Of a stretch of DNA of 64,000 bases, positions 6,030 to 59,382 are shown one piece after another; position 1 is the first letter of the stretch, and every line of letters starts with the position of its first letter. Below the pieces are notes generated by a model. That model saw only the letters and a program-made list of their open reading frames with translations, was not told the origin of the DNA and made no database searches. The position numbers and the translations under genes are program-made. Source of the DNA: Chiloscyllium plagiosum (Eukaryota); contig NC_057718.1 in the NCBI RefSeq assembly GCF_004010195.1, forward strand, positions 77,667,145-77,731,144. Reading direction: 5' to 3'.

Positions 6030-7070
6030 AGAGTCATCAGAAAGCAATCCTCTTCATGGTAAGCTCAGCAAAGAATAGTGTGCATGTCTATAGTGTATGA
6101 AGAAGATGCACACTGAAATCTACCATCTGTTGCAGGCAGACCTCCAGTCCCCTGCAGACAAGGATGCAGTGCCAGTGGCTGTGGGAGTGACGGTGGCCAT
6201 GAACATTTTCACATCAGGTCCTTCTGCGCTGGAGGGATGATATCTCTGACAGTTCACAGTTCAATGTTCACTGTTACAAATAGGTGGAATGGAGACTTTC
6301 TCTCAAGCAAGACCCAGACATAGCAAGATACTGTCAGCATTGCCTGCTAATCTAAAATATATATCGACCCTGAGAACAATGTAGTGCTCATCACTACTGC
6401 TCTATCTGAGAGGTACTCATGACTGATGCACTGCTTGACAGAAGAGGGAAATACTTTGCACACTCTCTAAGAAAGAGATTCATCAGGATAATCACTTCTC
6501 CATGATACAAGGTGCCACTAACCGCATACAAGTTGCTCTGTGGGTGCCAAACCTAAATGCAGGGATGCACTGCAATATTAAATGGCATGTCCTTCCTAAA
6601 AATGCAATTGCTGTGTGACCATATTCACTACATAATGTTGGTCAGTTCTGTCAGCAGACTTGATGCCTTTATTCTGCACCATTTCACTATCTGAGTTCCA
6701 CAGAGGTTGGCTATTGGGCAACAAGTGAAGCTGCCAAGCTGCCTGTACCATGTGGAGTGATTGTAATGAGGTCAACCAGCTAGACTACACAGAATATGAG
6801 TTTTCTGATAGCTGCTGCTAATCTGATCTAATCAGGAAGCCCTGGCTGACATATAAAGAGGGGAGATGATGACAATCTGGCATCTGACTCTGAATGAGGC
6901 TGTCCTAATGTCAAGGACTGTTCATCTGCAAATAAAGGGTGACTTGGTGATGGATATGGCCTCTGTGGAGTTATTTCACCATGATTCCAGTGCACCTTGC
7001 AGGCAGCAAGAGCTGTGCTGACTCAGGAAATATCATCAAGCAGATCACTGGAGTTCTCAACTACAGACGT
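6030..7070 (+). mobile_element. Harbinger (HARBI1-like) DDE transposase relic, interrupted by an LTR-like insert
   Basis: Collinear degenerate motifs VPVAVGVTVAMNIFTSG (6169), FSMIQGATNRIQVALWVP (~6500), QLLCDH (~6605), DAFIL (~6662), GWLLGNK (~6705), RNIIKQITGVL-like (~7025). Confidence 0.75.
6762..6978 (+). mobile_element. Solo LTR-like element (~215 bp)
   Basis: TG...CA ends (tgtaatga / ttatttca), atataaa at 6851, aataaa at 6931; homologous to split copy at 29506-29557 plus 38741-38877. Confidence 0.7.
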
Positions 7071-9314: not shown

Positions 9315-10065
9315 GGAGAAAGTGACAGCTGCAGGTGCTGGAGATCAGATTCAAAAAGTGTGGTGCTGGAAAAGGACAACCAGTCAGACAGCATTGGAGG
9401 ATCAGGAGAATTGACGTTTCCAGCATAAGCTCTTCATCAGGAATGATTTGGAGATGCCGGTGTTGGACGGGGGTGTACAAAGTTAAAAATCACACAACAT
9501 CAGGTTATAGTCTAACAGATGAAGGAGCAGCACTCCGAACACTAGTGTGCTTCCAATTAAACCTGTTAGACTATAACCTGGTGTTGTGTAAGGTGATAGG
9601 TCAGGGAGGAGGGTGGAGCGGTGGGGAGGAAAGGAAAATGGACAGGTAGGACAGTTAAAGAGGGCGGTGCTGAGTTGGACGGTTAGATCTGGGAGAAGGT
9701 CAGGGAAGGGGAGACCAGGAAACTGGTGAAATTGACATTGATCCCGTGTGGTTGGAGTGTCCCAAGGAAGATGATGAGGTGTTCTTCCTGTGGGGGTTGG
9801 GTGGCTACAATTTGGCGGTGGAAGAGGCCCAGGACTTGCATGTCCTTGACGGAGTGGGAGGGGGAGTGGAAGTGTTCAGCCACAGGTGGTGGGGTTGTTT
9901 AGTGCGTGTGACCCAGATATGTTCTCTGAAATATTCCACAAGTTGGCGTTCTGTCTGTACAATGTAGAGGAGACCACATGGAGAGCAACAGACACAGTAG
10001 ATGACGGGTGTGGGGGTGCAAGAAAACCTCTGCCGGATGTGGAAGGATCCTTTGGGATACCAGTT
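9315..10065 (-). mobile_element. Penelope-like element 3' part with a second PLE-type pseudo-LTR nested at ~9445-9590
   Basis: Reverse complement matches the PLE at 18090-18700; flanked by ttcctggt(a/t)tacaa at 9301-9314 and 10066-10079. Confidence 0.85.
9411..9440 (-). ncRNA. Minimal hammerhead core
   Basis: Minus strand CTGATGA-ag-agc-ttat-gct-g-GAAA-cgtc; stem II weakened. Confidence 0.6.
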
Positions 10066-10202: not shown

Positions 10203-10461
10203 CAAAAACAGAAGTTGCTGGAAAAGCTCAGCAGATCTGGCAGCATCTGTGAAGAGAAATCACAGTTTATGATTTGGGTCCAGTAACCCTTCCTCAGAAC
10301 TCAACTTCCCTAGGACTCAACTTCCCAATTCTGAGCAAGGTCACTGGACCCCAAACGTTAGCTCTGATTGCTCTTCACAGATGCTGCTAGAGCTGCTGAA
10401 TTTTTCCAGCAACTTCTGTTTTTGATTTACAGCGTCCACAGTTCTTTTGGTTTTTATTTAA
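10203..10461. mobile_element. Palindromic PLE pseudo-LTR-derived short element
   Basis: About 95-bp inverted arms (caaaaacagaagttgctggaaaa... / ...tttttccagcaacttctgtttttg); flanking duplication caattaaaggaa at 10191-10202 and 10462-10473. Confidence 0.75.
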
Positions 10462-15929: not shown

Positions 15930-18785
15930 TGAATGCACTGCTTCTGCTTCCCCCCCCACCCGACCCCATGGTATGCATCACTTCCATTGGTGACGTCAGC
16001 CACGAACCCATAACCACACCCACTCCAGAGACAGTCTCTGTCCCCACTTCCAACTCCAGCCCCACACCAGGTCCTAGACCCCAGCCCTGCTGGTTTTTTA
16101 CCAGCCCCTCACCACTGCACTCCCCTACCCCCTCTCAGACCCACCCCTCACTGAGAATGAACGATCAATCCTTAGTAAAGGTCTCACCTTCATCCCACTA
16201 CGCCCCCAGATCAGCAAATTCAACGCGAGTCGTGACATCAAATTTTTCTTCCGCCATCTCCGCCTCGGTGCTGACTTTTTCCAACAGGACTCCCATCCAC
16301 CCTTCGAGGACCCCTTCTCCCACCTCCAGTATACTCCATCCACTTGGACACCCCATGCTAGTCTGTTACCCGCCCTCGACCTCTTCATCTCCAATTGCTA
16401 CTGTGACATTGACCACCTCAACCTGTCTACCCCTCTCACCCACTCCAACCTCTCACCCTCACAACACGCAGCCCTCCACTCCCTCTGCTCCAACTCTAAC
16501 CTCACCATTAAACCAGTGGACGGGGGTGGAGTGCAGAGGCAGTTTGGCACACAGACCTCTACACTGCTGAAGCCAGGTGCCAACTCGCGGCCACCTCCTC
16601 CCTACTGCCCTCTTGACCATGACCTCACCTCCCATCACCAAACTATCATCTCCCAGATCATACACAACTTCATCACATCAGGGGATCTCCCTTCCACAGC
16701 CTCCAACCTCATAGTACGGGAAGCCCGCACCACCCAGTTCTACGCCTTACCCAAAATTCACAAACCTGACTGTTCCATCATCTCCACCTGCTCCAGTCCC
16801 ACCGAATTTACCTCCTCATACCCATGACACTGTCTTTCACCCTGGGTCCAGGATTTCCCCACATACATTTGGAACACCACGCACTCCCTCCACCTCTTCC
16901 ATCAATTTCAGTGTGCCGGCTCCCAATGCCTCATCTTCATCATAGACGTCCATTCCCTATACGCATCCATCTACCATGATGAAGGTCGAAGGTCTCCAAG
17001 CCCTCCATTTCTTCCTCTCCTGCCGACCCAACCAGAACCCTTCCACCGACACACTCATTCGATTGGCTGAACTGATGCTCACCCTCAACAATTTCTCCTT
17101 TGAATCCTCCCACTTCCTTCAGATCAAAGGAATAGCCATAGGCACCCTGCCTCTTCGTCGGGTACGTGGAACAGTCCATCATCCGCAGCTACACCAGCAC
17201 CATTCCCCACCCTTTCCTCCTTGACATCATCCTCTGCCATTTCTGCCACCTACAGTCAGACCCCACCACCAGATAGTTCCCTCCCCTCCCTTTTCAGCAT
17301 TCCACAGAGACCATTCCCTCTGCAATTCCCTTGTTAGGTCCATGCCCCTCACCAACCCACCCACCACTCCCACCATCCTCCCTTGCTGCCACAAGAGGTG
17401 TAAAACCTGTGCCACCTAGTGCTCTCACGAGAAGGTTGAACAATTCATCAACTTCACGAATACCTTCCACCTGGACTATCTCGGATCTCCCTCCTCTTCC
17501 TGGACCTCTCCATCTCCATTTTCGGTGACCAACTCAACATTTCATTCCCTCAGCTACCTGGATGACACCTCCTCCCACTCCTCCCACCCCATAAAAAAAG
17601 CTATCCCTTACTTCCAATTCATCCGCCTCCGCTGCATCTGCTCCCCGGAGGACCAATTCCACTTCAGATCATCCCAGATGGCCTCCTTCTTCAAGGACTG
17701 CAATTTCCCCTCCCATGTGGTCAACAATGCCCTCCAGTGCATCTCCTCCACTTCCCACACCTCTGCCCTCAAACCCCAGCCCTCTAACCCCACCCCTCTA
17801 ACCACAACAATGACAGAACATCCCAGCCCTCACCTTCCACCCCACCAACCTCCACATACATCACATCATCCTCCGCCATTTCTGCCACCAACAGTCAGAC
17901 CCCACCACCAGAGGTATATTTCCCTCCCCACCCTTTTCAGCATTCCACAGAGACCATTCCCTCTGCAATACCCTTGTTGGGTCCATGCCCCCCACCAACC
18001 CACCCTCCACTCCCACCACCCTCCCTTGCTGCCACAACAGGTGCAAAATCTGCACCCACACCTCCCCCCCTCACCTCCATCCAAGGCCCCAAAGGATCCT
18101 TCCACATCCGGCAGAGATTTTCCTGCACATCCAAAAACGTCATCTACTGCATCCGTTGCTCTCGATGTCATCTCCTCTACATTGGGGAGACAGGATGCCA
18201 ACTTGCGAAACGTTTCAGAGAACGTCTCTGGGACACATGTTCCAATCAACCCATTGCCCTGAGCACTTCAACTCCCCCTTCCACTCTGCCAAGGGCATGC
18301 AAGTACTGGGCCTCCTCCACCGCCAAATCCTGGCCACCCGATGCCTAGAGGAAGAACACCTCATCTTCCATGTGGGCCCCTCCAACCATATGGGATCAAT
18401 GTTGATTTCACCAGTTTCTTCATCTCCCCTCCCTCCCATCTTATCCCAGATCCAACCCTCCAATTCGGCACTACCCTCCTGAATTGTCCTACTTGTCCAT
18501 TTTCATCCCCACCCATCTGCTCTACCCTCCACTCCAACCTAAGACCATCAACTCCCCCATCTTCATCTACCTATCAAATTCCTAGCTACCTTCATCTCAG
18601 CCCCACCCCCTTTCCATTTCTCTCTCAGCCCCCTCATTCCCGATGAAGGGTTTATGCCCAAATCGTTAATTCATTGCTTCTCGGATGCTGCCTGACCTGC
18701 TGTGCTTTTCCAGCATCACACTCTCCACTCTGCTCCTCAGGTGCTGCGTGGCCAGCTGTGCTTTGTGAGTGCCATTCTTTTTGAC
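15930..18785 (+). mobile_element. Long degenerate Penelope-like element (probably Neptune type): RT, Cys linker, GIY-YIG
   Basis: FYALPKIHKP, LTLNNFSF, CHNRCKIC linker, NVIYCIRCSRCHLLYIGETG; decayed hammerhead core at ~18641-18668. Confidence 0.92.
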
Positions 18786-21883: not shown

Positions 21884-22175
21884 NNNNNNNNNNNNNNNNN
21901 NNNNNNNNNNNNNNNNNNNNNNNNNNNNNNNNNNNNNNNNNNNNNNNNNNNNNNNNNNNNNNNNNNNNNNNNNNNNNNNNNNNNNNNNNNNNNNNNNNNN
22001 NNNNNNNNNNNNNNNNNNNNNNNNNNNNNNNNNNNNNNNNNNNNNNNNNNNNNNNNNNNNNNNNNNNNNNNNNNNNNNNNNNNNNNNNNNNNNNNNNNNN
22101 NNNNNNNNNNNNNNNNNNNNNNNNNNNNNNNNNNNNNNNNNNNNNNNNNNNNNNNNNNNNNNNNNNNNNNNNNNN
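21884..22175. other. Assembly gap (N run)
   Basis: 292 consecutive N. Confidence 1.
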
Positions 22176-29398: not shown

Positions 29399-29505
29399 AG
29401 AACAGACACAAGGATGTGATGAGGCTGGTAGTTTGCTACTGCCATCTTATTGGATGATGGGCTGAGGACATAGGAGGCCAAAGAACATGCAGGGACTGGG
29501 ATAAT

Positions 29506-29557
29506 TGAAATGAGGTCAGCCAGGTGGATCTCACAGAATATGATTTCCCTGATTGGG
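29506..29557 (+). mobile_element. 5' part of LTR-like element (target of the Tx1 cluster)
   Basis: tgaaatgaggtcagccaggtggatctcacagaatatgatttccctgat aligns with 6762-6810. Confidence 0.8.
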
Positions 29558-29572
29558 AACTATATAGAAGTG

Positions 29573-29799
29573 TACGTTAGGGCCCGGGTGTCCATGAAGA
29601 AGGAGCATGCGGTGTCCACCAACACCCTGGGTTGTTCAGGGAGAGTGGGCGCCGCAGGGAGTGGAGTGCATCATTTCTCCCTCCAACTCTATTTTGATTT
29701 AGTCCCTACCCTCCCCTTCACTGTTTTGATCACACAGCACTGCCCTTTGATGTGAAGGGCAGTGTTTGTCACTGGCCACTTGGGTGTTGGCCTATCTTC
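29573..29799 (+). mobile_element. Tx1 3' fragment (copy 1: ORF2 end plus partial 3' UTR)
   Basis: YVRARVSMKKEHAVSTNTL; aligns with 36169-36399. Confidence 0.92.
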
Positions 29800-30504
29800 A
29801 GAGTTGGATCTGTGTGTGTACATATGTGCAAGGACTCTCCTCCTTGAAGGGGACTGTCCCTGGACTAGCTGCCCTGCATCGAGAGAGAGGAAGGAAAGAA
29901 GAAGGAAGAAGAGGAGGAGGCAAAAGCAGAAGGAGGTAAGAACTTTTGTGTCTGGGGCCTACGTTTGGAGCTGCAGCCTGGGCCTCACTCAGGTCAAGGG
30001 AGTGTTGCTGCTGACCTGGGGGCCCACTCCCACTGCTGGTCTCTGGGACCCCGCCCGGACCTGCCTCAACTGTTGCTGCTTGGGGCCCACCTCCACTGCT
30101 ACTGCCTGGGACTCAATTTTGGGGCTGCCTGGGACTTGCCTTGGACACCCTCCCCAACAGGTCTGCCCCCCACCGCTGCTGCAACCAAGGGCCTGCCTAG
30201 GACTTGCCAGAGGCCTGCCTCCACTGCTGCTGTTGCCTGAGGCCTGCCTCCACCACCACTGCCTGGGACTTGCCTTGGGGCCCCTCCCCACAGCCTCCAC
30301 CACTACTGCTGCCTGGGACTTGCCTTGGGGACCCTCCCCAACAGGCCTGCCCCCACCGCTGCAACCAAGGGAATTGCCTAGGACTTGCCAGAGGCCTGCC
30401 TCCACTGCTGCTGCTTGGGCCCCTCCCCACAACCTCCTCCACTGCTGACACCAGGGGCCCACCTCCACCGCTGCTGCCTGGGGCACAACAATATCCAGAA
30501 GAGT

Positions 30505-32750
30505 ATGGCGAGCCCGAAGGTCGAGGGGCCCAGCCGCACCTTCGCCGGGGTAGCCGCTGCCTTAGGCTCGGCTGTCCCAACCCCGGCTGCAACGTTGACT
30601 CCCTTCAGACACCTAACCAAACGCCTGGGGGTAAAGGCCTATCCCCACCCCAATATGACCATCAAGGCCTGCAGCAAGGCCATGGCTAGTGTGGTCGGCC
30701 CACTGGCCATCGTCGCTGCGGCCCGGATGTACGGGAAGGCCGTCTTTTTCCTTAAGACCGAGCAGGCGGTCCACCTGGCCGTGGAGAGGGGGCTCACTGT
30801 GGGCGGGACACAGTTGCCCGTCGACCCTCTGGAGATTACAGCCCAGAGGGTCGTGATCTCTAATGTCCCGCCCTTCATTGCCAACGAGCTCCTTCTCCCC
30901 CACCTCACCACCTTGGGGGAGGTCCGGTCAGGTGTGCAATCGCTCCTGCTCGGTCTTAAGGACCCCGCCCTCTGACACATCTACTCCTTCTGACGCCAGG
31001 TGTTCATTTGCCTGGCTCGGGAGGAGGTCACCGAGGGCTCATTCACCCTCCTCCATGAGGGCACGGCCTACCATGCCTTCTGGTCAGCAGACAGCCTGCG
31101 GTGCCACCTGTGCCGCGAGGTGGGGCACATAAGAAAAAACTGCCCCACCCAGAAGGCTGCCCAGCCCACGCCGATGGCTGGTGGTGGTGCCGCCGCACCC
31201 ACTCCCCCTCCCCCGAAGTCAACACCACAGGCCCCGGCACCGAAGGCTAAGCCAGGGGCTTGCAATGCTCCAGCCTCTGGCAGGGAGAGGGGTGAGCATC
31301 CGGCTGGCCAGAAGGCGCTGAAGAAGACGCGGCGCGTCAAGCCAGTCCACGTGGAGACCATCCTATCCCCTTCACCGGAACCTAGCCCACAACCTGCCCC
31401 GCCCAGGCACGATAATGCCCCTGCGGCCGTGCCAGCGTCGCCCCGGCACGGGAACCCTGACCCCCAAACCCGTACCTGATCCTAACCCCACTGACCCCAC
31501 ATCCACCCCCCACCCCAATGGAGAAACCCCTCGGGCTTCAACGCCTGCCCCTGGCGCCGTGACACCTGGCCCGGGGGCCCCTGAGCCCAAATCCCGCCAC
31601 ACCCTGGCACTAACCTGGGGGGAACCACCGCTGCCCTACCTCCTGCAGCGACCGTGTCTCTGGGCCCCGGAGGGGGAACTGGGCCCCTGCCCCTACCCTC
31701 GCCCTCGCCCTCACCTGATAAACCAGGGGCAGGGCAGGAAGTGACACAGCTGACCCTCCCCACCCTGGCCACGCCCCCTGTCTTCCCCCAGCCAATCGAA
31801 TTCTGGGAAAGGCTGGGGGGGGGGGGGGAATCCTCGGGCCCCATGACCACCAAGGCGGGCGGGGAGGGGAAGGCCCATAAATTCCCCCGGTCTCTCTAGG
31901 GAAGAGGCACCAGCCCTTGGAGAAGAGAGACATTCCAGCAGCGCGCCGGTGGCGCTGCCCCTCTCCAGGGGACGAGCCAACAGTGCCTCTCGACTGTCCC
32001 GCACTGTGGCCCGACCTACCTGAACCCCCAGGGCTACAGCAGGGCCTTCTGCTGCCTCAACTCCTCCGGCCCCTGGGGAGGACTTTAACAACCATATGGG
32101 CCACGATGTGGGCGACGACGGAGGACCCTCTGTTGGGTTGTCGAGCGGTGGAGAGGAGGAGGGTGTTATCCTCGCTCCTCCCTCCCAGACTGTTTTTCCG
32201 TGGGCCTTGGCCCTGGGGGAGGACCTTTTGCCTGAGGAGCTGGGCATCCCGGTGTCGGGAGAGGAGCGGGGCCCCGAGCCTCTGCCGCCCGACGACCCGA
32301 ACTTGGGACGCACCGAGGAAGGTACCGCCGGTGACCCTGGGGGTGGGGTCGCCGGGGGTTTGAGGCCCGTTGGTGGCGTCGGACCAGACCCCATCCTCTC
32401 GGTGGGGGAGGGGTCGGTGACCGAGGGCGACCTCCCGGAGGAGGGTTCGGGATTGGTGGCGGACACCGGGGACGAAGTAGACTCTTTCTGCAGCGACATT
32501 TGAGTCCCAGGTGTCCCCCACCGATCTCCCCCTCATCCCCCTCGAGGAACTCCAGGAATTTGTCGAGGAAACTTGGAGTCGCCGGGATAGAGCCCAACTG
32601 GCGCTCGACCGCTGGAGCTCCTTCGAGAGAGTTTACTGGTCGGCCCACGCTGCTCGCCAGGCGCCTGGGCTCAATGTAAATGAGCGAAAGCGATTCAGGA
32701 ACTTCCTGGGGGCACTCCTGGTGAGGGCGAGGGACTTCTGTGCCCCTCCC
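30505..32750 (+). pseudogene. Tx1 ORF1, disrupted
   Basis: AAARMYGKAVFFL, VVISNVPPFI, CHLCREVGHIRKNC zinc knuckle, Pro-rich linker, C-terminal IPLEELQEF...ALDRW; TGA stops at 30973 and 30991 plus frameshifts. Confidence 0.9.
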
Positions 32751-32755
32751 TCGTC

Positions 32756-35700
32756 CTCAACATCAACGGCAGCAGGGAGTCACAGCGCAGATTCCAGACC
32801 CTCTCAGTCCTCCGGGACGGGAGGTATGCGGTGTGCTTCCTGCAAGAAACCCACACTACCCCGGGAGACGAAGCCACCTGACTCCTGGCGTGGCGAGGGG
32901 GGGGTCTACGTGAGTCACCTCACCCGCAGATCTGGCGGGGTGGCTATCCTGGTGGCCCCACATTTTCAGCCAGAGATCTTGGGGGTCAGGGAGCCTGTGC
33001 CAGACTGTTTGCTTCACCTGACGGTTCGGCTGGGGAGCGCGGTGCTTCACTTGGTGAACGTCTACGCTCCCCTGGCCAGGCTGAGGCAAACGAGCTTCTT
33101 TGAAGAAGTGTCCTCTCATCTCGCTTCCATCGACGAGAACCAGTGCGTCGTCCTCGGGGGAGATTTTAACTGTGTCCTCGAGGGCAGGGACCACGGCGGT
33201 GCCCACACTGGTTGGGCGTCGGAGAGGAGGTTGTGGGACTTGGTCAAGTCCTTCGAACTGGTGGACATCTGGCGGAATCTCCATCCCGACTCCATCGCCT
33301 TCACCTTCGTGAAGCCTGGGGTCGGCGAGTCTAGAATTGACTGCCTGTACGTTGCGCGGGCGTACGCCTCCTGTTTTCCGAAGGCCTCCACGCGGCAGGT
33401 GTCGTGCACGGACCATCACCTGGAGTGGGCGGAACTCCTTCCGTTCGGCGCCAGGCTCTGCTCCGCGTACTGGCACTTTAACAACCTGCTGCTGGAGGAC
33501 GGGCAGTTCCGGGACTCGTTTCGTCGTTTCTGGGCCGGCTGGAGAAGGAAGCGGGGAAGCTTCTCCTCCCTGAGGCTATGGTGGGATGTGGGCAAGGCTC
33601 ACGTCCGTGTCTTCTGTCAGGAGTACGCGAGGGGGTCGATGAGGCGGAAATCCAGGATCCAGGAGTTGGAGAGGGAGATGCTCGACCTGGAGTCACACCT
33701 CGATCAGCCCGACGCGGACCCGGCCCTGCGCGGGGCGTACGAAGAGAAGAAGGCTGCGCTCCGGGACCTGCAGCTCGTCGGGGCTCGGGGCGCGTACGTG
33801 AGGTCGCGGATCCAGCTCCTCCAGGACCTGGACCGCGGCTCCCCCTCCTACTCGCTGGAAAAAAGGTGTGGCACCCGTCAGCAGCTCCTTGTGCTGCTGG
33901 CCGACAAAGGGAGCCTCCGGATCCGAAACGAGGGAATCAGGGCCCATGTCCGAAACTATTACACGTCTCTGTTCTCTCCGGATCCGTCCAGCGAGGATGC
34001 TCGCAGAGTTCTGTGGGAGGACCTGCCGCAGCTCAGCCCGGAGGACGCCGGAAGGCTCGACGCTCCCGTCACCTTAGAGGAGCTGACCGGCGCTCGAGGG
34101 GCAAAACCCCGGGGCTGGACGGGCTGACTGTGGAGTTCTTCAGGGCATTCTGGGTTGTCTTCTCGCCTGGCCTCCGTGCTGGCCCACATGATCCACCCGG
34201 ACCAGTCCTACACGGTCCCGGGCCGGAGGATACACGATAACGTCCACCTGGTCCGGGACCTGATCCATTTCTGTCGATGGGCTGGTCTGCCGAGCGCCTT
34301 CCTGTCTCTCGACCAGGAGAAGGCGTTCGACAGGGTCGATCACGAGTACCTGCTCGGGACTCTGCGGGCATTCGGGTTCGGGGCGCGGTTCGTCGCCCGG
34401 ATCCGACTTTTGTACGCTGCCGCAGAGTGTCTGGTTAAAGTTAGCGGGTCCCTGACGGCGCCCCTTCGCTTCGGGAGAGGAGTGCGTCAAGGCTGCCCCC
34501 TGTCCGGCCAGCTGTATTCCCTGTGCATGGAGCCTTTCTTGCGGAGGAGGTTGTCGGGGCTGGTTCTGCGCGGCGCGGGCACGGGGGTGGTCCTCTCGGC
34601 CTACGCCGATGACGTGCTCCTCACTTTCACCGACCCGGCTGACCTGGGGAGGGTGCGCGAGTGCCAGGCCGTGTACTCGGCAGCGTCTTCTGCCAGGATC
34701 AACTGGGCCAAATATTCCAGACTACTGGTCGGTCTGTGGCGGGTGGACTCTCTGCCGGAGGAGTTACGGGGGTTCAGCTGGGGTACCACCCATCTCCTCT
34801 ACCTGGGGGTCTACCTCAGCCCGGCTGAGGAATCCTGGCCGGCCAACTGGCAGGAGCTGGAGGCCAAAGTTTCGGCTCGCCTAGGCCGCTGGACAGGGCT
34901 GCTCCGAGTGCTATCTTACAGGAGTCGGGTGCTGGTCATAAACCAGCTGGTGGCCGCCATGCTGTGGTACCGGCTGGTCACTTTGGTCCCTCCTCTTGGC
35001 TTTGTCGCTGGCATCCAGAGAACGTTGGTCGATTTCTTCTGGGACAAAAAGATGCACTGGGTCGCCGCGCAGGCTCTGAGTCTCCCTATTGAGGTGGGCG
35101 GTCAGTCGCTGGTGTGCGTCCGCACCCAGGTCGCGGCGTTCCGCCTTCAGACCTTGCGGCGATACCTTTACGTCGAGCCTCCTCCTAGGTGGTGCGCCCT
35201 GGTGACGTATTTTTTCCGCCAGGTGCGTAACCTCAACTACGACACGCAGCTCCTGTTCGTCGACCGTGACGGTTTGGAGGTCGCCCTCAAGACGCTGCCT
35301 GTCTTTTACCAGGACCTGATCACTGTCTGGCACATGGTCGAATCGCGTCGCGCCTACCCTCTGGCTGGAGTAGCGGCTGTCGTCAGGGAGCTGTTGCTCA
35401 GGAATCCGCACCTCCGTACTCGCGGGTTCGAGTGGCTGTCGGAGGGGAGGGCCGTGGCGGCGAGGGTGACCAGGGTCGGGGACGTGCTGGGTGCCGGGGG
35501 CCTGGGCTGGACGCTACCGCAGGACGTAGCGAGCAGGGCAGTGGTAGACGTCCAGTACGTGGCCACCGCCATCCGACGCCTTAAAACGGTGGTGCTCGGA
35601 CCTGACATTGTGCACCAGTTGGAGGACGCTCAGGTGTGCAGTGGGATCCCGTCCGCGCTCACCCCAGCCCGGTCGGAATTTCACATTGGCCCCAAGGTCC

Positions 35701-36300
35701 CGTACTTCCCGCGGGAGCCTGTACCCCTCAACCTGAGCCATCTCCGGAATTTTAATTTTGATCCCTTCCAGGGGGTAAAAAGGAGGGCCCTGTATAGACT
35801 GCTGCTGCACACCGTCCACCTCTTCTTCTCCCTCATCCACCGTCCCCTGCAACCGCAGATTGCCATGGTTCAGACTCCCAGCCCAACTGCTTGTTCTGTG
35901 GCGCTGTGGAGTCCGTGGACCACGTATATATTGGGTGTGGGCATTTGCACTCCCTTTTTGATTTTCTCAAAAACCACCTCCTCTGTTTTTGGTTGCACTT
36001 CAGTCCCACGCTCCTGATCTTCGGGCACCCGGTACGGAGGAGGGAGGGCAGGTCTGAAGACCTCCTCGTGGGTCTGCTCCTGGGCCTGGCCAAACTGGCC
36101 ATCAACAGGTTGAGGCAGCGGGCCGTGGAGGGGGTCGTTAGGGCCGACTGCCTGCCCCTCTTCCGCGGTTACGTTAGAGCCCGGGTGTCCTTGGAGAAGG
36201 GGCACGCGGTGTCCACCAACACCCTGGAGTTGTTCAGGGAGAGGTGGGCGCCGCAGGGAATGGAGTGCATTATTTCCCCCTCCAACTCTATTTTGATTTT
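32756..36300 (+). pseudogene. Tx1 ORF2 (AP endonuclease, RT, C-terminal Cys motif), disrupted
   Basis: LNING, LQETH, NVYAP, GDFN, SRID, TDHH, DQEKAFDRVDH, GVRQGCPLSG, YADD, C..CGAVESVDH; stop at 32879 and deletions near 34155 and 35843. Confidence 0.93.
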
Positions 36301-36496
36301 AGTCCCTACCCTCCCTTTCACTGTTTTGATCACACAGCACTGCCCTTTGATGTGAAGGGCACTGCTTGTCACTGGCCACTCGCGTGTTTTCCTGTCTTCC
36401 TGGTGGTGGAAATTGAATAAAGATTTGTTCACTTTGTGTCTTTCACTGTGTCTCACACCTGCACACACACACCATGGGTGCTGGGGAAAAATAAGC

Positions 36497-36519
36497 ACTA
36501 CCGCACTTAGGCGGTAGTG
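36497..36519 (+). other. Tx1 3'-terminal stem-loop
   Basis: cactaccgc-acttag-gcggtagtg perfect 9-bp stem just before the A tail; recurs at ~37520, ~38087, ~38376 and degenerate at ~38568. Confidence 0.75.
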
Positions 36520-36529
36520 TAAAAAACAA

Positions 36530-37350
36530 TAGACTGCTCTGCACACCGTCCACCTCTTCTCTGTCATCCATCGTCCGGACACGCCTTGGCATGCCCATTT
36601 GCCACGGGGTGGTGGGGATCCCCAGTGGAGGGCTCTCTACGCGGGAGTCCTTCCCCTTTCTCTCGGGGATCTGGGGTGGAGGGTGCTGCACGCAGCAGTC
36701 CCCTGCAACCGCAGATTGCGGTGGTTCACGGACTCCCAGCTCAACTTCTTGTTCTGTGGCGCTGTGGAGTCCGTGGACCATGTATATATTGGGTGTGGGC
36801 ATTTGCACTCCCTTTTTGATTTTCTCAAAAACCTCCTCCTCTGCTTTTGGTTGCACTTCAGTCCCACGCTCCTGATCTTCGGGCACCCGGTACGGAGGAG
36901 GGAGGGCAGGTCTGAAGACCTCCTTGTGGGTCTGCTCCTGGGCCTGGTCAAACTGGCCATCAACAGGTTGAGGCAGTGGGCCGTGGAGGGGGTCGTTAGG
37001 GCCGACTGCCTGCCCCCCTTCCGCGGTTACGTTAGGGCCCGGGTGTCCTTGGAGAAGGAGCATGCGGTGTCAACCAACACCCTGGAGCTGTTCAGGGAGA
37101 GGTGGGCGCCGCAGGGAGTGGAGTGCATCATTTCTCCCTCCAACTCTATTTTGATTTAATCCCTGCCCTCCCCTTCACTGTTTAATCACACAGCATTGTC
37201 CTTTTGTGAAGAGCACTGCTTGTCACTGGCCACTCGGGTGATTTCCTATCTTCCTGGAGGTGGAAATTGAATAAGGATTCATGCGCCTTGTGTCTCTCAC
37301 TGTGTCTCACACCTGCACACGCACACCACGGGTAGAAAAAAAAAATTTAT
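36530..37350 (+). mobile_element. 5'-truncated Tx1 (copy 3)
   Basis: ORF 36599-37159 repeats the ORF2 C-terminus, including the segment deleted in copy 2; A-rich tail. Confidence 0.95.
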
Positions 37351-37361
37351 AAATAAATAGA

Positions 37362-38600
37362 AGTGTTTTGATGTGAAGGGCACTGCTTGGCACTGGCCGC
37401 TCTGGTGTTTCCTTTATTTTCCTGGTGGTGGAAATTGAATAAAGATTTGTGCACCTTGTGTCCCTCACTGTGTCTCACACCTGCACACACACACCATGGG
37501 TGCTGGGGGAAAAAATAAGCACTACTGCAGTTAGGCGGTAGTGTGGGGGTTTATAATAATTAAAAAAAGGAAAAAATAAACAGGAGTGTCAGAGGTTCTG
37601 TTCACTCTGAGAACTGGCTCTGAGGGAGCTGGATCAGTGTGAAGTACTACACAAGTGTAACATCCAAGGAGCAGGAGAATCGATGTTTCGGGCATGAGCC
37701 CTTCTTCAGGAAGCTCCTTGGATGCTGCCTGACCTGCTGCGCTTTTCCAGCAACACATTTTCAGCTCTGATCTCCAGCATCTGTAGTCCTCGCTTTCTCT
37801 GACACATGTGTACATAAAGGGGGACCTGGTGACAGGATACTGGCCTCTGTGGAATTACTAAAAAAAAGAAAAAAGAAACTGGGGTGTCAGCGGTTCTGTT
37901 TACTCTGAGAGGTAGCTCTGAGGAAACCGGATCAGTGTCATAAAAAAAATAGATGTGTCCCTCTGATGTCCCTCTGCACTGCTTGTCCTGGGGGTGGAAA
38001 TTTTGAATAAAGATTTGTGCACCTTGTGTCTCTCACCGAGTCTCACACCTGCACACACACACCATGGGTGCTGGGGAAAAAATAAGCACTACCGCAGTTA
38101 GGTGGTAGTGTGGGGTAAAAAAACACAGGGGTTCTGCTCACTCTAAGGAAAAAAATACACAGGAAATAAATAAGTAAATAAATAAAAGTGTTCCCCTTCA
38201 CTTTTTTGATCACACAGCATCGCCCTTTGGTGTGAAGGGCACTGCTTGTCACTGGCCACTCGAGTGTTTCTTTGCTTCCTGGTGGTGGAAACCGAATAAA
38301 GATTTGTGCACCTTGCGTCTTTTACTGTGTCTCACACCTGCACACACACAACATGGGTGCTGGGGAAAAAATATGCACTACCGCAGTTAGGCGGTAGTGT
38401 GGGGGTGAAAAAAACTAAACAGGAGTGTCCCCCTTCACTGTTTGATCACTCAGCATTGCCCTCTAAGAAGGGCACTGCTTGTCACTGGCCACTTGGGGGT
38501 TTCCTTTCTTCCTGGTGGTGTGCAGGTGTGAGACACACACATCATGGGTGCTGGGGACGATAAGAGCGTTACCGTAGTTAGGCGGTAAGTGTCGGGGTTT
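37362..38600 (+). mobile_element. Four further Tx1 3' UTR copies interleaved with LTR fragments
   Basis: UTR motifs (gggcactgcttg / gaataaagatttg / tgtgtctcacacctgcacac / 3' hairpin) at ~37362, ~37975, ~38187, ~38428. Confidence 0.9.
37661..37800. mobile_element. PLE pseudo-LTR fragment with minus-strand hammerhead core (37682-37709)
   Basis: Minus strand CTGAAGA-a-gggc-tcat-gccc-GAAA-catc; flanked by acaca(a/t)gtgta. Confidence 0.8.
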
Positions 38601-38740
38601 TGTAAAATCAGCAGAGTCTGATTTTTCTCTCAAAGAGCTGGCTCAGAGGGAGCTGGATCAGTGTGAGTGAAGGACTCTGCTCTTTTTTCCCAGTATTAAA
38701 GAGGAGAGGAGACTGATTCTGTTGGTGTCAGCCCCAAGAA

Positions 38741-38877
38741 AATATAAACAGGAGTGTCAGGGGTTCTGTTCACTCTAGGAGCTGGCTCTGTGCTAGCTGG
38801 GTCAGTGTCATATGCTATGCATCTGTAAATAAAGGGCAATTTAAAGACAGCATACCGGTCTTTGGGAAGTTATTTCA
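38741..38877 (+). mobile_element. 3' part of LTR-like element, starting at the TATA box
   Basis: atataaacaggagtgtcag...catctgtaaataaaggg...gttatttca aligns with 6851-6978, best at the 3' end. Confidence 0.8.
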
Positions 38878-39182
38878 GGGACATTGTGAAAATACAGCTT
38901 GTATGATAACAGTCATTCAGCAATTGCAATCAAATGTGTTGAGAATTTGCACTGTCTAGTTTCTCAGGAAAGGAGAAGAGAATTGGAAGTGACATATAAA
39001 TAAGGTAAGTTAAGGCTTTAATGAAACACATGAAAATAAGGTAACTGCCATTCAATGGTATGAAATTCGGAAATTGCCATTTGAGGCTTGAAGGGAAACT
39101 CTGAAAAAAAATTTTCTCAATATTGAGGATCTGATTTTTTTCATTCTCACTGTACTTTCCCACCTTCCTACCCATTGATCTA

Positions 39183-39959: not shown

Positions 39960-40920
39960 CAGCTGCAACAGGACATTAATAAACTACCAAAATGGGCAGA
40001 CAATTTGCAGGTTGAATTTAATTCAGAGAAGTGAAATGTGATGCGTTTTGGCAAAAGGAATAGGAAGAAGCAATATATTCTAAACTGCGTGCAGGAATAG
40101 AGGGTTCTGGAGTGTACATTTGTCCTGATCTTTGACAGGAGGAGGAGGAATTGAGAGAGTGGGTAGCAAAATATATGGCATCCTGGACTTCATAAATAGG
40201 CATATTAAATACAAAAGATTTGGAATTATGCTAAACACTTGTGAGTCTCTGGTTAGGCCTAAACAAGAGTGCTGTTCCCCCATATTGTCACTACACTTTA
40301 GAAAAAATGCCAGTATCCTTGAAAAGATGCAGAGAAGATTTACGAGAATGATTCTACAGACCAGATCTTTTAGTTACCGATTATGTTAGAAAGGCAAGAG
40401 TTGTTTTCCTTGGAGCATTAAGGAAGAATTTTATGGAGGTGTACAGAGTCTGATAAGCTTCAATAAGCTGGAGAAGGAAAACCTCTTCCCGTTGGTTGAT
40501 GGTACAAGATCAAGAGGATGCATATTTCAGAATTTGGTAAGAGATGCAGGGAATTGATTGGAAGATATGTTTTACACAATGAATGGTAATATGCTGGAAC
40601 TTTTGGTTCACGAAGGGATGGAAGTGGAGGTAAAAGAGGTAAAGAGGTTCCTGATGAAGGGTTTTTGCCTGAAACGTCGATTTCGAAGCTCCTTGGATGC
40701 TGCCTGAACTGCTGTGCTCTTCCAGCACCACTAATCCAGAATATGGAAGTGAAGGTAATCAATGATTTCAAAAAGAAATTGGACTGCCACTTGAAGAAAA
40801 CAAATTTGCAGGGTTAGAGGAATTGAGTGAGTGAAAAAGGTGAACTGGAGTGCTTCACAGGGAGCCAACATGTGTTTGATGAGTCAAATACCCTCTTTCA
40901 GGGCCATGGATCACTCTGTG
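39960..40920 (+). mobile_element. Old CR1 3' fragment
   Basis: LVRPKQECC...LEKMQRRFTRMI in ORF 40132-40389. Confidence 0.8.
40634..40742 (+). mobile_element. 109-bp PLE pseudo-LTR insert with hammerhead core (40651-40678)
   Basis: CTGATGA-a-gggt-tttt-gcct-GAAA-cgtc; flanking duplication atggaagtg(g/a)aggtaa at 40618-40633 and 40743-40758. Confidence 0.85.
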
Positions 40921-47604: not shown

Positions 47605-50600
47605 CCATATTCCAGCCAGTCTTTGGTCTGTATTCCAGCCGGTCATGGGTCTGTGTTCCAGTCAATCATGGATCGTGTTTCAGTCGGTCATGGGTCTGTG
47701 TTACAGCCAGTCATGGGTCTGTATTCCAGCCGGTCATGGGCCTGTGTTCCAGCCAGTCATGGGTCTGTATTCCAGCCGGTCATGGGCCTGTGTTCCAGTC
47801 AGTCATGGGCCTGTATTCCAGCCGGTCATGGATCTGTATTCCAGCCGGTCATGGATCTGTGTTCCAGCCGGTCATGGGTCTGTGTTCCAGCCAGTCTTGG
47901 GTCTGTGTTGCAGACAGTCTTGGGTCTGTGTTCCAGCTGGTATTGGGTCTGTGTTCCAGATGGTCCAGGGGCTTTGTTCCAGCCAGTTATGGTTCTGTGT
48001 TCAGCCGGTCACTGGTCTGTGTTCCAGCCGGTCATGGGTCTGTGTTCCAGCCAGTCTTGGGTCTGTGTTGCAGACAGTCTTGGGTCTGTGTTCTAGCTAG
48101 TCTTGGGTCTGTGTTCCAGCCGGTCATGGGTCTGTGATCCAGCCGGTCATGGGTCTGTGTTCCAGTCAGTCAGGGGTCTGTATTCCAGTCAGTCATGGGC
48201 CTGTATTCCAGTCGGTCATGGATCTGTGTTCCAGTCAATCATGGATCTGTGTTTCAGCCGGTCATGGGTCTGTGTTCCAGCCGGTCATGGGTCTGTGATC
48301 CAGCCGGTCATGGGTCTGTGTTCCAGTCAGTCATTGGTCTATATTCCAGCCAGTTATGGATCTGTGTTCCAGTCGGTCATGGATCTGTGTTCCAGTCAAT
48401 CATTGATCTGTGTTTCAGTCGGTCATGGGTCTGTGTTTCAGTCGGTCATGGATCTGTGTTCCAGCCGGTCATGGATCTGTGTTCCAGCCGGTCATGGGTC
48501 TGTGTTCCAGTCAATCATGGATCGTGTTTCAGTCGGTCATGGGTCTGTGTTACAGCCAGTCATGGGCCTGTATTCCAGCCGGTCATGGATCTGTATTCCA
48601 GCCGGTCATGGATCTGTGTTCCAGCCGGTCATGGGTCTGTGTTCCAGCCGGTCATGGGTCTGTTTTTAGACGGTCATGGGTCTGTATTCCAGCCGGTCAT
48701 GGGTCTGTGTTCCAGTCGGTCATGGGTCTGTGTTCCAGTCAGTCTTGGGTCTGTGTTCCAGCCAGTCATTGGTCTGTGTTTCAGTTAGCCACGGGTCAGT
48801 GTTCCAATCAGTTTTGGGTCTGTGTTCCAGACAGTCTTGGGTCTGTGTTCCAGCTGGTATTGGGTCTGTGTTCCAGATGGTCCAGGGCCATTGTTCCAGC
48901 CGGTCATGGGTCTGTGTTCAGCTGGTCATTGGTCTGTGTTCCAGCCGGTCATGGGTCTGTGTTCTAGCTAGTCTTGGGTCTGTGTTCCAGCCGGTCATGG
49001 GTCTGTGATCCAACCGGCCATGGGTCAGTGTTTCAGCTAGTCATGGGTCTGTGTTCCAGACAGTCTTGGGTCTGTGTTCCAGCTGGTATTGGGTCTGTGT
49101 TCCAGATGGTCCAGGGCCTTTGTTCCAGCCAGTTATGGTTCTGTGTTCAGCTGGTCATTGGTCTGTGTTCCAGCCGGTCATGGGTCTGTGTTCCAGCCAT
49201 TCTTGGGTCTTTGTTGCAGACAGTCTTGGGTCTGTGTTCCAGCCGGTCATGGGTCTGTGATCCAGCCGGTCATGGGTCTGTGTTTCAGTCAGTCATGGGT
49301 CTATATTCCAGCCAGTCGTGGATCTGTGTTCCAGCCGGTCATGGGTCTGTGTTCCAGTCAATCATGAATCGTGTTTCAGTCGGTCATGGGTCTGTATTCC
49401 AGTCAGTCATGGGTCTGTATTCCAGTTGGTCATGGATCTGTGTTCCAGTCAATCATGGATCTGTGTTTCAGTCGGTCATGGGTCTGTGTTTCAGTCGGTC
49501 ATGGGTCTGTGTTCCAGTCAATCATGGATCGTGTTTCAGTCGGTCATGGGTCTGTATTCCAGCCAGTCATGGATCTGTGTTCCAGCCGGTCATGGATCTG
49601 TATTCCAGCCGGTCATGGGTCTGTGTTCCAGCCAGTCATGGGTCTGTGTTCCAGTCGGTCATGGATCTGTGTTCCAGCCAGTCATGGGTCTATATTCCAG
49701 CCGGACATGGACCTTTGTTCCAGTCAGTCATGGGCCTGTATTCCAGTCGGTCATGGATCTCTGTTCCAGCAGGTTATGGATCTGTGTTCCAGCCAGTCAT
49801 AGGTCTGTATTCCAGCCGGTCATGGGTCTGTATTCCAGCCGGTCATGGGCCTGTGTTCCAGCCAGTCATGGGTCTGTGTTCCAGTCGGTCATGGATCTGT
49901 GTTCCAGCAAGTTATGGATCTGTGTTCCAGCCAGTCATGGGTCTGTATTCCAGCCGGTCATGGGCCTGTGTTCCAGTCAGTCATGGGCCTGTATTCCAGC
50001 CGGTCATGGATCTGTATTCCAGCCGGTCATGGATCTGTGTTCCAGCCGGTCATGGGTCTGTGTTCCAGCCGGTTATGGGTCTGTATTCCAGTCAGTCATG
50101 GGCCTGTATTCCAGTCGGTCATGGGTCTGTGTTCCAGCCGGTCATGGATCTGTATTCCAGCCGGTCATGGATCTGTATTCCAGCCGGTCATGGATCTGTA
50201 TTCCAGCCGGTCATGGATCTGTATTCCAGCCGGTCATGGATCTGTATTCCAGCCGGTCATGGGTCTGTGTTCCAGTCAATCATGGATCGTGTTTCAGTCG
50301 GTCATGGGTCTGTATTCCAGTCAGTCATGGGCCTGTATTCCAGTCGGTCATGGATCTGTGTTCCAGTCGGTCATGGGTCTGTGTTCCAGTCAGTCTTGGG
50401 TCTGTGTTCCAGCCAGTCATTGTTCTGTGTTTCAGCTAGCCACGGGTCAGTGTTCCAATCAGTTTTGGGTCTGTGTTCCAGACAGTCTTGGGTCTGTGTT
50501 CCAGCTGGTATTGGGTCTGTGTTCCAGATGGTCCAGGGCCTTTGTTCCAGCCAGTTATGGTTCTGTGTTCAGCCAGTCATGGATCTGTGTTCCAGCCGGT

Positions 50601-52880
50601 CATGGGTCTGTTTTCCAGCCGGTCATGGGCCTGTATTCCAGCCAGTCACGGATCTGTGTTCCAGCCGGTCATGGGTCTGTGTTCCAGTCAATCATGGATC
50701 TGTGTTCCAGTCGGTCATGGGCCTGTATTCCAGTCAGTCATGGGCCTGTATTCCAGTCGGTCATGGATCTGTGTTCCAGTCGGTCATGGGTCTGTGTTCC
50801 AGTCGGTCTTGGGTCTGTGTTCCAGCCAGTCATTGTTCTGTGTTTCAGCTAGCCACGGGTCAGTGTTCCAATCAGTTTTGGGTCTGTGTTCCAGACAGTC
50901 TTGGGTCTGTGTTCCAGCTGGTATTGGGTCTGTGTTCCAGATGGTCCAGGGCCTTTGTTCCAGCCAGTTATGGTTCTGTGTTCAGCTGGTCATTGGTCTG
51001 TGTTCCAGCCGGTCATGGGTCTGTGTTCCAGCCAGTCTTGGGTCTGTGTTGCAGACAGTCTTGGGTCTGTGTTCTAGCTAGCCTTGGGTCTGTGTTCCAG
51101 CATGTATTGGGTCTGTGTTCCAGATGGTCCAGGGCCTTTGTTCCAGCCAGTTATGGTTCTGTATTCAGCTGGTCATTGGTCTGTGTTCCAGCCGGTCATG
51201 GGTCTGTGTTCCAGCCAGTCTTGGGTCTGTGTTGCAGACAGTCTTGGGTCTGTGTTCTAGCTAGTCTTGGGTCTGTGTTCCAGCTGGTATTGGGTCTGTG
51301 TTCCAGATGGTCCAGGGGCTTTGTTCCAGCTAGTTATGGTTCTGTGTTCAGCTGGTCATTGGTCTGTGTTCCAGCCGGTCATGGGTCTGTGTTCCAGCCA
51401 GTCTTGGGTCTGTGTTGCAGACAGTCTTGGGCATGTGTTCTAGCTAGCCTTGGGTCTGTGTTCCAGCTGGTATTGGGTCTGTGTTCCAGATGGTCCAGGG
51501 CCTTTGTTCCAGCCAGTTATGGTTCTGTGTTCAGCTGGTCATTGGTCTGTGTTCCAGCCGGTCATGGGTCTGTGTTCCAGCCAGTCTTGGGTCTGTGTTG
51601 CAGACAGTCTTGGGCATGTGTTCTAGCTAGTCTTGGGTCTGTGATCCAGCCGGTCATGGGTCTGTGTTCCAGTCAGTCATGGGTCTATATTCCAGCCAGT
51701 CATGGATCTGTGTTCCAGCCGGTCATGGGTCTGTTTTCCAGCCGGTCATGGGCCTGTATTCCAGCCGGTCACGGATCTGTGTTCCAGCTGGTCATGGGTC
51801 TGTATTCCAGTCAATCATGGGTCATGTTTCAGTCGGTCATGGGTCTGTATTCCAGTCAGTCATGGACCTGTATTCCAGTCGGTCATGGATCTGTGTTCCA
51901 TTCGGTCATGGGCCTGTATTCCAGTCAGTCATGGGCCTGTATTCCAGTCGGTCATGGATCTGTGTTCCAGTCGGTCATGGGTCTGTATTCCAGTCAGTCA
52001 TGGGCCTGTATTCCAGTCAGTCATGGATCTGTGTTCCGGCAAGTTATGGATCTGTGTTCCAGCCAGTCATGGGTCTGTATTCCAGCCGGTCATGGATCTG
52101 TATTCCAGCCGGTCATGGATCTGTATTCCAGTCAATCATGGATCTGTGTTCCAGCCGGTCATGGGTCTGTGTTCCAGACAGTCATAGGTCTGTATTCCAG
52201 CCGGTAATGGGTCTATTTTCTAGCCGGTCATGGGTCTGTGTTCCAGCCGGTCATGGGTCTGTATTCCAGTCGGTCATGGGTCTGTGTTCCAGCCGGTCAT
52301 GGGTCTGTGTTCCAGTCAGTCATAGGTCTGTATTCCAGCCGGTCATGGGTCTGTTTTCTAGCCGGTCATGGGTCTGTGTTCCAGCCGGTCATGGGTCTGT
52401 ATTCCAGTCGGTCATGGATCTGTGTTCCAGCCAGTTATGGGTCTGTGTTCCAGTCAGTCATGGGTCCGTAATTCAGTCGGTCATGGATCTATAATCCAGC
52501 TGGTCATGGGTCTATGTTCCACAGGTCATGGCTCTATGTTCCAGCCGGTCATGGATCTGTGTTCCATCCGGTCACGGGTCTGTGTTCCAACCAGTCTTGG
52601 GTCTATGTTCCAGCCATTCTGGCGCCGTGTTCCGACCAGTCTTAGGGTTGTGTTCCAGTCAGTATTGGGGTTATGTTCCCGCCAGTATTGGTTCTGTGTT
52701 CCGACCAGTCTTGGGGCTGTGTTCCGACCAGTCTTGGGGCTGTGTTCCAGCCAGTATTGGGTCTGTGTTCCAGCCAGTCATGGGGCTGTGTTTCAGCCAG
52801 TCATGTGTCTGTGTTCTAGCCAGCTATGGGTCTGTGTTCCAACCGGTTATGGGTCTGTGTTCCAGTCAGTCCTGGGTCTA
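47605..52880. repeat. Large minisatellite, 23-bp unit, about 230 copies, with higher-order structure
   Basis: Unit ccagccggtcatgg(g/a)tctgt(g/a)tt; ORF translations show a 23-aa period. Confidence 0.98.
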
Positions 52881-59189: not shown

Positions 59190-59382
59190 AGCTCAGTCGG
59201 TCTGGCAGCATCTGTGAAGAGAGATCAAAGTTAACGTTTTCGGTTCAGTTCTGAGGAAGGGTCACCGGACTTCAAACATTAACTCTGATTTCTCTTCACA
59301 GATGCTGCCAGACCTGCTGAGCTTTTCCAGCAACTGCTGTTTTTGTTTCTGATTTATAGCACCCACAGTTCTTTCAGATTTT
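59190..59382. mobile_element. Palindromic PLE-derived short element
   Basis: ggtctggcagcatctgtgaagag / ctcttcacagatgctgccagacc inverted arms; decayed ctgagga core at 59251. Confidence 0.75.

Follow-up and report, generated by a model that had tools for sequence, protein, structure and literature searches.

A Tx1-clade LINE family inserted at one site in the long terminal repeat of an older retrotransposon in Chiloscyllium plagiosum

Does a Tx1-clade long interspersed nuclear element (LINE) family use one short sequence inside another retrotransposon as its target? The question is raised by a 64,000-nucleotide stretch of the Chiloscyllium plagiosum genome (NCBI RefSeq assembly GCF_004010195.1, contig NC_057718.1, positions 77,667,145 to 77,731,144 of the forward strand), the whole of which is hereafter called the window. 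Between positions 29506 and 38877 of the window lies a nest made up of a near-full-length, broken LINE and five 5'-truncated copies, all on the + strand, enclosed by pieces of a long terminal repeat (LTR). Target preferences are familiar in the Tx1 clade, where Tx1L inserts into Tx1D, Keno into U2 genes, and Kibi and Koshi into microsatellites. A preliminary description, made from the letters of the window alone, had proposed that this family is directed to the TATA region of the LTR. Comparison of copies across the genome leads us to conclude, with a probability of roughly 0.9, that an older family of LTR retrotransposons carries in its LTR one site that a Tx1-clade LINE family has colonised.

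The samples used throughout were the 40 best-scoring hits per query and do not represent a census. A query with the 3' untranslated region (3'UTR; 36300-36520) gave at least 1107 candidates in the genome, and the 30 loci returned were read; individual sampled loci are denoted by numbers with the prefix L. The tails of the Tx1 copies at these 30 loci (GGTAGTGTGGGGG, TTAAA, A-rich, often (TAAA)n) mostly run into the motif (A)TAAACAGGAG(TGT), behind which stands either a further 5'-truncated Tx1 piece or the 3' half of the LTR. The genomic 3' flanks, whose comparison the preliminary description had suggested, are not heterogeneous: with one mismatch allowed, the core motif was present behind 37 of 72 Tx1 3' ends, where shuffled flanks predict 5.2; on the reverse complement it was present behind none of the 72. 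Among the focal Tx1 ends outside the window, the motif was found behind 12 of 27 (1.7 expected from shuffles), and Tx1 or LTR sequence followed within 140 nt in 23 of 27, with unrelated DNA in the other four.

The 5' flanks, for which the same comparison had been suggested, give a matching picture. LTR 5' halves stand upstream and LTR 3' halves downstream of Tx1 arrays, in a single orientation, at L011, L012, L014, L015, L018, L022 and L029. The Tx1 copies lie in the sense orientation at GATA^TAAACAGGAGTGT^CAG in the LTR and are flanked by a target-site duplication of 14-15 bp, in which both sides of the insert carry the variant that belongs to that particular LTR copy. The local variants read in the sequence were TTAAACAGGAGATTC at L012, CAAATAGGAGTGTC at L015, ATAAAAAGTGGAGCA at L014, TAAAAGAGGAGTATC at L022, ATAAACAGGAGTGT at L011 and ATAA(A)CAAGAGGTC at L076. 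Because the duplicated site tracks the local LTR variant, the motif is a target-site duplication and not a fixed part of the LINE.

The site was also approached from the side of the LTR. A script anchored on the LTR 5' half recovered 40 halves in long loci, 20 of them continuous and 20 interrupted. In 18 of the 20 interrupted halves the break falls at positions 10-22, numbered from the G of GATATAAAC; sense Tx1 sequence follows immediately in 15 of these 18. Junctions read by eye (n = 21) end between positions 15/16 and 20, with 12 of the 21 at position 17 or 18; two further junctions (L003 and L024), in which the LTR variant could not be aligned, were excluded from this count. Occupancy was estimated from LTR copies chosen by similarity of the 5' half, regardless of what follows, and read in 81-nt stretches; in this sample 6 of 39 copies had Tx1 at the site, 30 were continuous and three were broken by other sequence. 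Of 29 LTR copies chosen by the 3' half, four were preceded by a Tx1 tail, 24 were continuous and one was broken by other sequence. About 15% of the sampled LTR copies are thus occupied by Tx1 at the site.

Other sequences were encountered at this position as well. In the 81-nt sample, the LTRs of L098, L116 and L122 are broken at the same site by sequence that matches neither the Tx1 copy of the window nor the LTR. The end of a different poly(A) retroposon (...TGTAAACTGT...TTTGTTTAATAAAAT followed by an A-run) abuts a AAACAGGAG-type site in the upstream flank at L056:2778-2909 and, in both L073 and L082, upstream of the Tx1 leader described below. This retroposon may represent another family, or else a non-autonomous partner, with the same target.

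The LTR is abundant in the 3.56-Gb genome, with at least 2928 first-look candidates for its 3' half and at least 833 for its 5' half. Natural copies are ~235 bp long (TGTAGTGATTG...TTATTTCA), have TG..CA ends, and carry a CCAAT box, the sequence GATATAAAC ~100 bp in, and an AATAAA signal. Several copies are followed directly by the same GTGGTGATGAGAG... sequence, and six of 29 LTR loci outside the window share ~1.4 kb of internal sequence at 64-75% identity. In one extended locus (L091), decayed matches to the Pfam domains RVT_1 (E 4e-7), RT_RNaseH (E 5e-6) and rve (E 8e-6, below cutoff) follow one another in that order. These hits came from a search of all 35 pieces of open reading frame (ORF) of 45 aa or more; four long ORF pieces of the internal region gave no Pfam match at E 0.01, and one weak match at E 10. 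The description of the target as an LTR was therefore borne out by its CCAAT, TATA and AATAAA motifs and by the attachment of some copies to decayed reverse transcriptase (RT), RNase H and integrase sequences. To judge from these predicted domains, the parent element is an old LTR retrotransposon with a pol order of the Ty3/gypsy or retrovirus type. Among the sampled copies, Tx1 3'UTRs are mostly 95-96% identical to the copy in the window, whereas LTR copies are 82-88% identical to their queries, and the LINE is on this account younger than the LTR family that it targets.

The full-length LINE copy spans 6.95 kb (29573-36520). Its 5'UTR has internal repeats at 30030-30490, its ORF1 occupies 30382-31479, and its 3'UTR extends over ~36300-36520. 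The direct repeats at 30030-30490, in the GC-rich region of the 5'UTR and the ORF1 N-terminus, are up to 91% identical over 110 bp. ORF1 contains in-frame stops and gave a weak Pfam match to zf-CCHC (E 6e-4; 20.2 bits, below the cutoff of 20.8). ORF2 (32481 to ~36300) is predicted to encode an apurinic/apyrimidinic endonuclease (APE)-type domain N-terminal to the RT; its two parts, 32481-34127 and 34128-36017, are in the same frame and separated by a single stop (34125-34127). The RT matched RVT_1 at E 6e-24, and the Pfam match of the endonuclease to Exo_endo_phos was weak (20.1 bits, below the cutoff of 24.5). The reading frame of ORF2 is shifted by the loss of ~121 bp near 35845, which are present in the neighbouring piece at 36577-36697, and the N-terminus of the endonuclease (its first ~47 residues) is out of frame. 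Judged by in-frame stops in both ORFs, the frameshift and the displaced endonuclease N-terminus, the window copy is dead.

Protein comparison places the LINE in the Tx1 clade, as had been proposed, on the basis of a similarity ranking rather than a tree. The RT half matched YTX2_XENLA, the founding Tx1L ORF2 of Xenopus, with 579 bits (E 4e-168, 51% identity over 90% of the query), compared with 84 bits for human L1 ORF2p and at most 45 bits for R2 proteins. The endonuclease half was 41% identical to residues 48-464 of Tx1L over 418 aa, and matched structures of the L1 endonuclease at E 1e-8 to 3e-6. Other named matches were 'Transposon TX1...', 'YTX2 protein' and 'pol-like protein' of Tetraodon and Danio; none of the 240 matches listed was named LINE-1, and the closest unnamed relatives among the matches listed were from sea turtles. 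In a poly(A) single-cell RNA run, the Tx1 3' ends were covered with a strong strand bias (145 versus 4.8 depth), and almost no reads fell on the ORFs. Oligo-dT priming on A-rich tails of genomic origin within other transcripts would produce the same pattern, and for this reason the reads were not taken as evidence on autonomous expression or on transcription starts.

The arrangement of the nest was mapped by self-BLAST of 29400-39000 against the whole 64-kb window, by the listing of ORFs, and by direct reading of the letters. Self-BLAST and alignment found no Tx1 match elsewhere in the window, in agreement with what had been noted before. All features described here are on the + strand. The nest opens with an LTR 5' part (29506-29572; self-BLAST and reading) that has an internal deletion of ~40 bp relative to most copies and closes with the TATA variant and target site of this copy, TATATAGAAGTGT. 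The portion at 29506-29557 is 80% identical to 6760-6809 by self-BLAST and 88% identical to a natural LTR copy. At the junction (29572/29573) the sequence reads ...gaagtgt/ACGTTAGGG, and the point at which Tx1 starts here is identical in L011 and lies two bases upstream in L029. The full-length copy then consists of a 5' leader (29573-29799), a body with 5'UTR, ORF1, ORF2 and 3'UTR (29800-36520; identified from ORFs, Pfam and protein matches) and a short A-rich tail (36521-36528).

The remainder of the nest is a succession of Tx1 pieces, identified by self-BLAST, with tails and site copies identified by reading. Each truncated copy has an A-rich tail, usually followed by a copy of a motif like TAAACAGGAGTGT. 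The second Tx1 piece (36529-37333) comprises the ORF2 C-terminus and most of the 3'UTR, and retains the ~121 bp absent from the full-length copy. It is followed by an A/T-rich tail, after which the local target variant recurs as AAATAGAAGTGT, matching 29561-29572 (tail and site together, 37334-37366). The third piece, with its tail, occupies 37367-37574 (3'UTR at 37367-37550) and meets an LTR 3' half that begins with ATAAACAGGAGTGTCAG and is split by a repeat resembling a short interspersed nuclear element (SINE) (37575-37857). Next come an A-run and a truncated LTR 3' half whose site is the variant GAAACTGGGGTGTCAG (37858-37942, the LTR piece itself at 37866-37942), the fourth Tx1 piece, from the end of the 3'UTR (37983-38115), and a stretch composed of a tail, the short LTR fragment CAGGGGTTCTGCTCACTC, a (TAAA)-rich tail and a partial site (38116-38191). 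The fifth piece, from the 3'UTR (38192-38400), is followed by a tail and the site copy CTAAACAGGAGTGT (38401-38429), and the sixth, also from the 3'UTR (38430-38598), contains a small internal inversion near 38521-38536, seen by reading. The nest closes with a diverged piece resembling an LTR 3' half (~38599-38740), of which 38625-38678 is 80-82% identical to LTR copies, and with an LTR 3' half running from ATATAAACAGGAGTGTCAG to ...TTATTTCA (38741-38877; 87% identical to a natural LTR copy). The nest thus contains four LTR 3'-half pieces, those at 37575-37857 and 37866-37942 having been found by self-BLAST and alignment together with reading. 

Parts of the original reading of the nest have to be amended. 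The LTR had been described as split into 29506-29557 and 38741-38877; both parts are present, and the 5' part extends to 29572, but they cannot be shown to be the halves of one simple insertion, because the TATA variant TATATAGAAGTGT of the 5' part recurs at 37356-37366 and not at 38741. The Tx1 tails had been said to meet the motif repeatedly, at 37575, 38417, 38741 and, as a variant, 37877. They do so directly at 37575 and 38417, whereas the copy at 37877 stands behind an A-run that follows an LTR 3' half and the copy at 38741 stands behind an LTR-like piece. The intact LTR-like element reported at 6762-6978 was confirmed by self-BLAST and reading as an unoccupied LTR of a divergent subfamily (+ strand; TG...CA ends, TATA and AATAAA), with 72% identity over 197 nt to the natural LTR copy L033.

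Behind two LTR 3'-half pieces in the nest (37857-37877 and 38599-38741) stands an A-run or A-rich stretch, with a new copy of the site after it. This order would fit the re-insertion of a Tx1 read-through transcript, that is, 3' transduction. The SINE-like repeat that splits the first LTR 3' half (37661-37800) has many copies in the window, among them 4359-4451, 9316-9394, 10214-10247, 18676-18735, 40641-40731 and 59301-59334. Its depth in the RNA run was very high on both strands (138 and 123), with many opposite-strand joints at 37661/37725. Elsewhere in the window, 21884-22175 is a run of 292 N, possibly an assembly gap, and the composition is asymmetric at 16001-18000 (GC skew -0.54) and at 48001-52000 (AT skew -0.42 to -0.45, with 53% GC).

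The leader at 29573-29799 is a duplicate of sequence from the 3' region of the element itself (~36170-36399; 92% identical by self-BLAST), and it had been counted in the preliminary description as one of seven Tx1 3' ends in the same orientation. When the start of the Tx1 5'UTR (29800-30100) was used as query, all 29 sampled copies outside the window (L062-L090) had a leader fused at the same point. The leader therefore belongs to the full-length copy, and the pieces, which do share one orientation, number six rather than seven. In content, the leader is a copy of the end of the element's own ORF2 and the first ~100 nt of its 3'UTR. Its length ranges from 55 to ~620 bp with varied 5' ends, and the two longest leaders (L076 and L085) start at the same base, one of them behind an LTR site and the other in unrelated DNA. 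The simplest idea for its origin is a one-off template switch in a master copy. Derivation of the 5'UTR start from the R region of the LTR was also considered and rejected, as local alignments scored 22-31 against shuffled maxima of 23-31 and were not significant.

Several observations weigh against the conclusion that the LINE family has colonised one LTR site. The four focal 3' ends outside the window for which the next 140 nt match neither Tx1 nor LTR belong to L004, L013, L020 and L024; at L024, an LTR 3' half lies ~1 kb further downstream of the Tx1 end. L085 and L064 start in non-LTR DNA, and specificity is not absolute. The motif is recognisable at only 12-14 of the 27 focal ends, partly owing to diverged LTR copies. 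The nest in the window is itself no clear-cut example, the site variant at its 5' side being different from that at its 3' side. Sampling by best hits also counts here, as do the out-of-frame endonuclease N-terminus of the window copy and the fact that the specificity of the endonuclease for the site is argued by analogy. Finally, Tx1 ends recur about every 510 bp with near-identical tails at L016, and one junction is repeated identically at L015. The L016 series (~1500-3223), with its near-identical long tails, is like a small satellite from tandem duplication, and some arrays, those of L016 and L015, seem to have grown by duplication and not through repeated insertion.

These regular arrays are also what would be expected if the Tx1 pieces were passengers, either because LTRs with a prior Tx1 insert had been amplified by LTR retrotransposition or because arrays had grown by unequal crossing-over. 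The same question of hitchhiking was raised for SINEU-3 in the main text of Kojima 2015 (PMC4494074). As an account of the family as a whole, however, it appears very unlikely, since almost every LTR junction has a truncation point of its own (from Tx1 ~35950 to 36520 in window coordinates), the tails differ from locus to locus, the Tx1 3'UTRs are more alike than the LTRs that would have carried them, and the duplicated sites hold local variants that postdate the divergence of the LTR copies. An even smaller chance is given to the proposal that the LINE ends in a fixed 3' sequence comprising the TAAACAGGAG(TGT) motif and the LTR-like part, or carries these along as 3' read-through cargo, and that they are not the target. 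Many Tx1 tails do end in ...TAAATAAACAGGAG, and the two LTR 3' halves that precede A-runs and a new site in the window (37857/37866 and 38740/38741) would fit occasional 3' transduction. As a general explanation this proposal is already contradicted by LTR 5' halves upstream of Tx1 arrays, by a motif that varies among loci and matches the upstream variant in the same LTR copy, and by intact LTRs free of Tx1 that hold the motif in place (24 of 29 in the 3'-half sample and 30 of 39 in the 5'-half sample). The least probable of the alternatives is that true sequence specificity is lacking and that an L1-like endonuclease with a preference for T-rich/A junctions struck an abundant TATA box by chance. 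A bottom-strand nick in TTTA/TATC would resemble the L1 consensus TTTT/AA, and a few Tx1 insertions do lie in unrelated A/T-rich DNA; chance strikes are difficult to reconcile with 18 of 20 interrupted LTRs broken within ~12 nt of a single site, always in one orientation, with a motif whose frequency is seven-fold that in shuffled flanks and which does not occur on the opposite strand, or with ~15% of the sampled copies of one repeat family struck at the same place.

Colonisation of one LTR site is thus the preferred explanation, and a mechanism for it can be outlined by analogy with the biochemistry of Tx1L and L1. The endonuclease of Tx1L nicks its target specifically in vitro, according to the text of PMC1950540, and the endonuclease of the present family is likewise the probable carrier of site specificity. 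It would nick the bottom strand of the LTR inside the TATA box, the top-strand site being GATA^TAAACAGGAGTGT^CAG. Reverse transcription of the LINE RNA would then be primed at the nick, starting in its A-rich 3' tail, which is often (TAAA)n (target-primed reverse transcription), and the top strand would be cut 13-16 bp downstream. The duplication leaves a site copy on each side, and later insertions into either copy would build tandem arrays. The arrays observed consist mostly of copies with severe 5' truncation, with an LTR 5' half at one border and an LTR 3' half at the other, and repeated insertion accounts for them because each insertion leaves the site on both sides. Tandem SINEU-3 copies that sandwich a target-site duplication were likewise interpreted as sequential insertions in the main text of Kojima 2015 (PMC4494074), where transcription from the flanking target was also suggested.

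The proposal that the family targets the promoter of another transposon holds genome-wide as far as location is concerned, the site being at the LTR TATA box. Inserts start 13-16 bp behind the TATA box in the sense orientation, and both position and orientation fit a possible use of the LTR promoter by the LINE. Taken further, the LINE might be a promoter parasite of the LTR element: by landing in sense between the TATA box and the transcription start, it would capture the U3 promoter and cut the LTR element off, and the leader would be sequence that can be lost without harm when transcripts start a few bases into the insert. This extension is tentative, and we regard it as rather doubtful. 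R2 depends on transcription of its target, as discussed in the main text of PMC4494074.

The target had been presented as one unlike those of described families, which was an overstatement: the crocodilian families Tx1-8_Crp and Tx1-4_AMi prefer LTR retrotransposons, as stated in the main text of Kojima 2015 (PMC4494074), and other Tx1 families treated there are directed to a Mariner family (Tx1-Mar) or to Harbinger elements (Tx1-9_AMi). The targeting habit is thus already known for the Tx1 clade, and the present family is a clear new example of it. Beyond that sentence of Kojima 2015, a search of the full-text literature turned up no account of a LINE directed to the TATA box of an LTR; this search did not extend to Repbase and Dfam, where the family may already be deposited. 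The family adds a well-resolved target to the Tx1 list, with its 14-15-bp duplication, defined orientation and occupancy of ~15% of sampled copies, and is an instance of one retrotransposon family using the core promoter of another as a safe landing site. An APE-type endonuclease that reads a site of ~15-20 bp, with a hairpin unlike that of Tx1L, would be a useful comparator for work on DNA recognition, and could inform tools for site-directed insertion.

Of the known systems, Tx1L of Xenopus laevis is the most similar. Among named proteins it gave the closest match (RT half 51% identical, endonuclease half 41%), its two-ORF layout is the same, and it likewise targets one sequence inside another transposon. 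Its target, Tx1D, is a non-autonomous piggyBac-type DNA transposon, whereas the target in Chiloscyllium plagiosum is the TATA box of an LTR retrotransposon. The β-hairpin loop of Tx1L was grafted into the L1 endonuclease (L1-EN) by Repanas et al., as described in the text of PMC1950540; the corresponding loop here is predicted to be three residues shorter and to lack the RDGH tip (FTFVKP---GVGESRID here, FTYVRVRDGHVSQSRID in Tx1L). Tx1-8_Crp and Tx1-4_AMi share the preference for LTR retrotransposons, a comparison made by description only, as the position within the LTR element is not given in the main text of Kojima 2015; those families cluster with Keno, whereas the best named match here is Tx1L. 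Crocodilian Tx1-Mar and SINEU-3, which insert into Mariner-N4_AMi, are, as described in the same text, similar in having a defined site in an abundant older transposon, a target-site duplication of ~16 bp and tandem copies. They differ in that their target is a DNA transposon and their heads are derived from small nuclear RNA, whereas the head here comes from the 3' region of the element itself. With Keno, Kibi, Koshi, R1 and R2, the family shares site-specific, target-primed insertion into a multicopy sequence. The targets of those elements are host RNA genes or microsatellites and not the promoter of another retrotransposon, and R2 differs further in using a restriction-like endonuclease where the present family has a predicted endonuclease of the APE type.

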